From Escherichia coli (GTDB lineage: Bacteria; Pseudomonadota; Gammaproteobacteria; Enterobacterales; Enterobacteriaceae): a stretch of DNA of 397 nucleotides. The position numbers and the translations under genes were made by a program. Under the pieces are notes generated by a model. It was not told where the DNA came from. It did no database searches and saw only the letters and a list, made by a program, of their open reading frames with translations. Positions within the stretch are counted from its first letter, which is position 1. Each line of letters begins with the position of its first letter. Where the stretch lies: the NCBI RefSeq assembly GCF_003334315.1, contig NZ_QOWR01000134.1; one strand, written 5' to 3'. Positions 1 through 397 of the stretch are shown one piece after another.

Positions 1-20
1 TTATCGTGAGAGTAATTCAT
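1..20 (-). CDS. insL: IS186 transposase InsL, N-terminal fragment (first 6 codons, MNYSHD...); CDS runs off the window start
   Basis: ATG at 20..18 on the minus strand, followed by AAT TAC TCT CAC GAT = M N Y S H D, matching the recalled N-terminus of the IS186 transposase. It sits 55 nt inside the putative element end. Only 20 nt are visible. Confidence 0.55.
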
Positions 21-52
21 CGGCACGTTAAATCATATCAGGCGTAATACCA

Positions 53-75
53 CAACCCTTAAGTTAGCGCTTATG
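53..75 (-). repeat. IS186 terminal inverted repeat (about 23 bp)
   Basis: Minus-strand read 75->53 is CATAAGCGCTAACTTAAGGGTTG, matching the recalled IS186 terminal inverted repeat. The partner repeat would lie outside the window, so the inverted pairing cannot be verified here. Confidence 0.6.
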
Positions 76-96
76 GGATTACTCCCCGCACAACGG

Positions 97-249
97 CTAC
101 TTCTTCGGTTCGTAAGCGAGAACAGCCTTAAACTCAATATTACGTTCCTTCACCGTAAACTCACACAGCGAGTCTCCGACCAGAAGCGTAAATCCCAGCA
201 CCGTTAAACACAGCACTATGACTGCCGCAAGGGCATATTTCGTCAGCAT
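97..249 (-). CDS. hokE: Hok/Gef-family type I toxin, 50 aa (small membrane-damaging host-killing peptide)
   Basis: ATG at 249..247, stop TAG at 99..97. Product [50 protein letters not shown] has an N-terminal hydrophobic helix (about 178-237 in window coordinates), the conserved SLCE motif and the AYE C-terminal motif typical of Hok/Gef peptides (compare Hok ...SLCEIRY...AYES, Gef ...DLCEVHI...AYESE). It is near-identical to my recollection of E. coli HokE. A GGAGG ribosome-binding site lies 10 nt upstream. Confidence 0.85.
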
Positions 250-285
250 GTTTATATTGCCTCCATGCGAAGAAGGGACTACCAT
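97..285 (-). CDS. Possible mok-like (modulation of killing) reading frame: in-frame N-terminal extension of hok from ATG at 285 (62 aa)
   Basis: In-frame ATG at 285..283 lies 12 codons upstream of the hok start. In hok/sok loci, translation of an overlapping upstream mok frame is required for hok translation and is the target of Sok. No ATG-initiated ORF exists in the other two frames of the leader (M P R V stop at 361; M E A I stop at 266). No clear ribosome-binding site precedes the 285 ATG, so this is weak. Confidence 0.25.
257..285 (+). promoter_or_regulatory. Candidate sigma70 promoter for the Sok-like RNA (-35 TTGCCT at 257-262, 17-bp spacer, -10 TACCAT at 280-285)
   Basis: Hexamers match the consensus at 4/6 (TTGACA) and 4/6 (TATAAT, with A2 and T6 retained) with optimal 17-bp spacing. 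The predicted start near 292-294 is consistent with an antisense RNA covering the mok-like initiation region. Sequence-only prediction. Confidence 0.3.
260..264 (-). promoter_or_regulatory. Shine-Dalgarno sequence (GGAGG) for hok
   Basis: Plus-strand CCTCC at 260-264 is GGAGG on the minus strand, with a 10-nt spacer (CAATATAAAC) to the hok ATG at 249. Confidence 0.7.
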
Positions 286-293
286 CCAAATTG

Positions 294-352
294 TTCGGGT
301 TTGGAGTGGCAGCCCCAGGGTGTACTGACCCCAAAAAGTTGGACAGTTAAAC
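294..352 (+). ncRNA. sokE: Putative Sok-like antisense RNA (antitoxin of the type I TA system); boundaries approximate
   Basis: Position is inferred from hok/sok architecture: Sok is transcribed antisense to the hok mRNA leader and covers the mok translation-initiation region, here just upstream of the ATG at 285. A candidate promoter lies at 257-285 on the + strand. No convincing intrinsic terminator is visible, so the 3' end is uncertain. Confidence 0.4.
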
Positions 353-397
353 ACGAGGCATATAGGTCTGATTCCGATATTCAATTGGAGTCAGACC

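Follow-up and report, generated by a model that had tools for sequence, protein, structure and literature searches.

Analysis of a 397-nt stretch of Escherichia coli DNA (hereafter the window) revealed that its predicted antitoxin RNA gene is, in all likelihood, the 5' part of sokE, such that the promoter, the start at G293 and the first 28 nt of the gene are intact and an IS150 insertion at 320/321 removes the rest. An earlier sequence-only reading had placed here a Sok-like antitoxin RNA of about 60 nt on the + strand, running from near 293 to about 352. The presence of a sok gene on that strand opposite the hokE leader was borne out, as were its promoter and start, whereas the full RNA was not, and neither of the two IS ends in the window had been recognised.

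The locus in the window is hokE/sokE, a type I toxin-antitoxin system of E. coli. Window bases 1-321 are 100% identical to K-12 MG1655, beyond which the two sequences diverge, and a megablast search of 5,426 complete E. coli genomes returned many full-length matches at 100%, with BLR(DE3), BL21, C41/C43, E. coli B, E. coli C and clinical isolates among the exact-match genomes. The features lying under the full-length matches were hokE, an IS4/IS421-family (IS186) transposase and an IS3/IS150-family transposase, and hokE is thereby flanked by two IS elements (IS186 and IS150). The 50-aa hokE toxin CDS occupies 97-249 on the - strand, as given by translation of the open reading frame and by the hokE annotation in the exact-match genomes, and is identical to K-12 b4415 (hokE at 607836-607988 on the + strand of MG1655, with IS186B directly downstream). 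The HokE Tyr46 codon is TAC followed by G (window 114-111, - strand), and UACG is the TadA editing motif. Copy number varied elsewhere in the collection: in E. coli ECC-1470 the hokE/sokE locus is tandemly duplicated, with two like-oriented hokE genes spaced about 500 bp apart (L009 117-269 and 620-680), and the 80-mer spanning sokE was found at 2-3 places in some genomes.

On the hokE-distal side, the end of IS186 (IS4/IS421 family) fills window 1-74, its insertion point lying 22 bp past the hokE stop codon. This assignment follows from three IS-free alleles (L009-L011), whose homology to the window starts at base 75; because they align only from there, IS186 occupies 1-74 and took most of the hokE 3' UTR, all but 22 nt of which was removed, leaving a native remnant at 75-96 (- strand). 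The terminal sequence CATAAGCGCTAACTTAAGGGTTG... adjoins a transposase gene, the IS421-family transposase CDS extends to window 20, and window 1-78 lies inside the annotated K-12 IS186B. The K-12 mobile_genetic_element feature for IS186B starts at 608007, equivalent to window 78, which is 4 bp off the divergence point of the IS-free alleles at 74/75.

Mapping the K-12 annotation onto the window placed the antitoxin gene precisely. The K-12 ncRNA sokE (b4835) is a 60-nt gene running from 607792 to 607733 on the strand opposite hokE, and its 5' end at 607792 corresponds to window 293, exactly where the sequence-only reading had put the start. By register its 3' end corresponds to window 352, so that the 3' end guessed near 352 agrees with K-12 sokE by length only, window 321-352 being IS150 DNA. 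What the window encodes is a truncated sokE at 293-320 on the + strand, nt 1-28 of the 60-nt K-12 SokE, delimited by the mapped annotation and by the fold of the intact RNA. K-12 SokE reads GUUCGGGUUUGGAGUGGCA-GCCCCAGGGUUGAUAGAAAUAUCUCCUGGGGC-UUCAUCUUU, its three parts being the 5' tail, a long stem-loop with interruptions and a U-rich tail; the window retains GUUCGGGUUUGGAGUGGCA, which is the single-stranded 5' tail, and GCCCCAGGG, which is the 5' arm of the terminator stem. The remainder of the gene (loop, 3' stem arm and U-rich tail) is found 1,443 bp away, except in B and C strains, which have lost it. The 5' end of sokE sits 44 nt from the hokE ATG (49 nt for sokC and 48 nt for sokB), and the gene is thus antisense to a hok-family leader with its 5' end tens of nt upstream of the hok ATG. 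K-12 SokE is routinely included in sRNA lists and screens; among the papers covered we found no primary one with experimental mapping of its 5' end, and the paper of Pedersen and Gerdes (1999) is reportedly the primary account of the chromosomal hok loci.

Folding analyses separated the intact and the truncated gene. K-12 SokE folds into a 14-bp interrupted stem at -24.6 kcal/mol (z = -2.8), whereas window 293-352 folds no better than its shuffles (z = +0.63), and a terminator scan found no hairpin followed by a T-tract within 293-352. The sequence-only reading had itself failed to see a clear terminator hairpin with a U-tract, correctly so, and the reason is that IS150 displaced the 3' half of sokE. 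A hairpin pairing GCCCC (312) with GAGGC (359) was considered as a Sok-like stem and set aside, since 321-397 is IS150 and the fold is no better than shuffles. The reading that the window nonetheless encodes a working, full-length Sok-like antitoxin RNA (about 60 nt, ending at about 352) that starts at 293 and represses hokE is almost certainly wrong: its promoter and start are right and its span equals the K-12 sokE length, but bases 321-352 belong to IS150 rather than sokE, no hairpin or terminator lies within 293-352, and the true 3' half is displaced or deleted as above. A complete RNA of about 55-65 nt with a 5' tail and a terminator stem-loop is accordingly not what this sequence specifies; it specifies nt 1-28 only.

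The truncated sokE passes directly into the right end of IS150, which occupies window 321-397 on the - strand, carries the terminal repeat TGTACTGACCCC... and is identical to the reverse complement of the annotated K-12 IS150 right end at 77/77 positions. Within it lie the final codons of the transposase and its stop at 349-347, the CDS ending at window 347 on the - strand, and the IS150 transposase genes read towards hokE. The complete element was seen in strain 300709 (L003), which carries a 1,443-bp IS150 identical to the K-12 copy at 1443/1443 positions and flanked by GGG at both ends (L003 2818-2820 and 4264-4266), after which K-12 sequence resumes with GGGTTGATAGAAATATCTCCTGGGGCTTCATCTTT, corresponding to sokE nt 26-60. 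Because a complete, GGG-flanked element is followed by sokE nt 26-60, the sequence describes a simple IS150 insertion into the 5' arm of the SokE terminator stem that duplicated 3 bp of the target, the window copy of the duplication being the GGG at 318-320 (no strand assigned). The terminal inverted repeat (TGTACTG...), the 1,443-bp length with insJ/insK and the 3-bp duplication all identify the element as IS150 of the IS3 family.

This insertion was followed by others at the same place. In B and C strains (L001, L004 2822-4795) the hokE-adjacent IS150 is itself interrupted by IS1A, and the K-12-equivalent bases 322-479 are missing, so that the sokE 3' half and the hokE leader/promoter region are gone. 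ECONIH6 (L005) has IS1A in the other orientation and the 322-479 deletion is absent. IS150 and then IS1A represent successive layers of IS activity at one site. An 80-mer spanning the sokE/IS150 junction was present in 540 of the 5,426 genomes (at least 80% coverage) and the intact K-12 sokE 80-mer in 4,511 of the same set; the junction allele is an ancestral, widely distributed, natural one. Plasmids contributed almost only IS150 matches, with about 1,500 records matching only the right-hand ~80 bases, under IS150 transposase annotations, and no plasmid hok/sok homologue could be aligned in that search. One plasmid, NZ_CP110860.1, carries hokE at 111673-111920 with 100% identity to window 74-321; its match ends exactly at the IS150 junction position, where another element may abut.

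Upstream of G293, the promoter predicted by the sequence-only reading is present at 257-285 on the + strand. It comprises the -35 hexamer TTGCCT (257-262), opposite the hokE Shine-Dalgarno sequence GGAGGCAA, a 17-nt spacer and the -10 hexamer TACCAT (280-285), whose CAT is the complement of an in-frame mok-like ATG at 285-283. The two hexamers agree with the consensus at 8/12 positions, and matches this good occur at a mean of 1.76 per dinucleotide-shuffled window and are present in 83% of shuffles, so the motif alone is no better than chance. A promoter scan at a 9/12 threshold returned 0 sites, which, as with the terminator scan, we do not count as absence, given that threshold and the displacement of the real terminator. 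The significance of the sokE promoter rests on position and conservation, not on the motif.

With regard to position, aligning the Sok strands from the hok ATG revealed that the annotated 5' ends of sokE, sokB and sokC share one column and that the -35 elements TTGCCT (sokE), TTGACC (sokC) and TTGCCG (sokB) are in register, each opposite the hok Shine-Dalgarno sequence. The -10 elements TACCAT (sokE) and TAAGAT (sokB) both precede the annotated 5' end by 7 nt; in the same alignment sokC showed no clear -10 hexamer in that register. With regard to conservation, four intact hokE/sokE alleles that are 91-98% identical in this region leave both hexamers invariant and vary in the SokE 5' tail. The same TTGCCT-17-TACCAT arrangement was reported at the ybdK/sokE spacer among RpoD-holoenzyme SELEX sites (Shimada et al. 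2014, PMC3946193), a survey made in vitro with K-12 that placed the hexamers inside the bound spacer in silico. These observations point to a sigma-70 promoter of sokE's own with its -35 opposite the hok Shine-Dalgarno sequence. They also make it highly improbable that the hexamers are a chance match with no + strand transcription here: the frequency of 8/12 matches in shuffled windows and the empty 9/12 scan are what chance would give, but the architecture is common to the sokB and sokC promoters, the hexamers stay invariant in diverged alleles while neighbouring bases vary, RpoD holoenzyme binds the spacer in vitro, and an annotated K-12 ncRNA begins 7 nt after the -10.

The mok-like ATG beneath the -10 hexamer is in frame with hokE, and K-12 has no mokE annotation. 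A 95-aa frame at window 97-384 on the - strand runs open from a TTG inside the IS150 end to the hokE stop; we rejected it as a genuine mok-like gene and regard it as an artefact of fusion by the insertion, the K-12 sequence upstream of 321 being different. In many genomes the NCBI pipeline also places a pseudo-CDS ('hypothetical protein, frameshifted') over the intact sokE/hokE-leader region (for instance L010 238-505 and L011 238-506), which is probably a spurious call.

Scoring the locus against the Rfam 'sok' model (RF01794) gave 24.4 bits for the window, on the - strand (241-397) and cut at the 5' end, below the gathering score of 59 bits. The low score reflects the fact that IS150 takes up roughly two thirds of the model's span, and in strain 300709 a match above threshold (63.7 bits) lies on the far side of the element. 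Intact K-12 loci scored 84.4 (hokE/sokE), 118.3 (sokC) and 109.7 bits (sokB), and all matches lie on the hok-sense strand, opposite the annotated Sok (L002 3690-3845, L006 402-554, L007 467-618). The RF01794 consensus ends in the hok AUG, and the model in effect describes the hok leader. Because it sits on the hok-sense strand, a + strand match is impossible even at intact sokE, which makes the + strand RF01794 scan proposed by the sequence-only reading an unsound test. Strand-specific use of RF01794 therefore misleads, as the score reports on the locus and not on the Sok strand. Other Rfam matches were discarded, namely caiA in the window (E = 1.7, mere Shine-Dalgarno/ATG similarity) and mir-331 and mir-1990 on the K-12 SokE hairpin (generic hairpins far below gathering scores).

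Within the IS150 end, a terminator scan (L003 2864-2898) and folds identified a 15-bp perfect hairpin at window 364-397 on the + strand, plus the next base T (398). It is followed by TTTAATTTCA just beyond the window (on to L003 2898-2908) and is terminator-like for + strand transcripts. This resemblance to a terminator holds only for transcripts that come into the IS from outside, and the hairpin might shield IS150 from impinging transcription. From the intact promoter, transcription would still fire from G293 and produce 28 nt of Sok followed by IS150 sequence antisense to the 3' end of the transposase gene, and the hairpin at 364-398 is the likely 3' end of this putative chimeric Sok'-IS150 RNA of about 110 nt.

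Such an RNA could have acquired a new function, with an active sokE promoter making a stable Sok'-IS150 RNA that ends at the 364-398 hairpin and acts as an antisense regulator. Its targets could be read-through from IS150 into hokE, keeping the toxin silent, or, in trans, the 3' ends of transposase mRNAs from all IS150 copies. The promoter is intact, the IS150 genes point at hokE, a strong hairpin lies downstream and is followed by UUUAAUUUCA, and the allele persists in 540 genomes. Background on plasmid R1 adds to this, in that the 5' tail of R1 Sok recognises the target and the tail retained here would, by analogy, be the target-recognition part of SokE. Persistence is, however, equally expected of a neutral relic spread by clonal descent, and the breakage of IS150 by IS1 in B and C strains suggests decay over maintained function. 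We consider such a regulator a long shot, and its more specific form, in which an RNA of about 110 nt (28-nt SokE recognition tail plus antisense IS150) silences read-through hokE or dampens transposase in trans, a slightly longer one; if true, an antitoxin promoter would have been co-opted as a transposon regulator.

The truncation of sokE by IS150 is the reading we favor, and its consequences can be set against the intact system. Intact SokE is a 60-nt antisense RNA in which a 19-nt single-stranded 5' tail is joined to a GC-rich stem-loop serving as an atypical terminator, and sok genes do use atypical rho-independent terminators (PMC3326304). By analogy with Sok of plasmid R1, SokE would pair with the hokE mRNA leader, stop mok/hok translation and trigger RNase III cleavage. 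In the window, one insertion splits both overlapping genes, sokE and the hokE mRNA leader: SokE loses its loop, 3' stem arm and U-rich tail, and the hokE mRNA is deprived of its native promoter and of ~100 nt at the start of its leader. The hokE 3' UTR was removed separately, by IS186. The IS150 split together with the IS186 loss of the 3' UTR leaves the locus a relic that has been disrupted twice, with sokE in effect a pseudogene comparable to K-12 sokA.

The IS150-truncated hokE/sokE is an ordinary broken toxin-antitoxin locus that is already catalogued, and nothing about it is new. It is one more natural example of IS150 in hok/sok regulatory DNA, and its importance is small beyond correct annotation. 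It does illustrate that, behind a plausible 'antitoxin RNA' call made from a promoter only, there can be a gene that a mobile element has broken. In addition, BL21, BLR, C41/C43 and E. coli B and C carry the allele, and work on hokE/sokE in these strains meets a split leader and a split antitoxin.

Compared with known systems, the closest relative is K-12 sokE (b4835) itself, which shares the DNA of window 1-321 from the IS186 end through hokE, the promoter, the start and sokE nt 1-28(29), and then goes on with GUUGAUAGAAAUAUCUCCUGGGGCUUCAUCUUU (loop, 3' arm and tail) where the window goes on with IS150. The Sok family more broadly, including R1 Sok (hok/sok, parB), sokB and sokC, resembles sokE in being antisense to a hok leader and shares one layout, with the -35 opposite the hok Shine-Dalgarno sequence and the 5' end 44-49 nt upstream of the hok ATG. 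The intact sokE allele, like sokB, sokC and R1 Sok, has a 5' tail and a terminator stem-loop, whereas the window copy has no stem-loop. The relation to mok also differs. SokC overlaps the start codon of the annotated mokC with its 5' end (by 9 nt) and SokB that of mokB (by 11 nt), whereas no mokE is annotated and the one in-frame ATG near sokE (285-283) is 8 nt away from SokE, without overlap. The hok/sok mechanism is summarised in PMC9841398, according to which the ends of R1 hok mRNA carry tac, ucb, fbi and dcb, elements controlling folding and translation; by analogy, we infer that a similar end-element control may apply to hokE mRNA.

The K-12 hokA/sokA locus is like the window in having IS150 between a chromosomal hok and its sok/leader region, with mokA and sokA surviving as remnants annotated as pseudogenes and IS150 lying between hokA/mokA and sokA. 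It differs in that hokA is a different hok paralogue, the element lies 32 bp upstream of the ATG rather than 72 bp as at hokE, and the orientation is opposite, insJK reading away from hokA and towards hokE in the window. Similar events have been observed in evolving E. coli B lines derived from REL4536, where IS150 was found repeatedly next to hokC, hokE and mokB and where the authors viewed the insertions as inactivating redundant toxin-antitoxin systems (PMC5419217). Those insertions are new and arose in the laboratory, whereas the IS150 insertion in the window is an ancestral natural allele.
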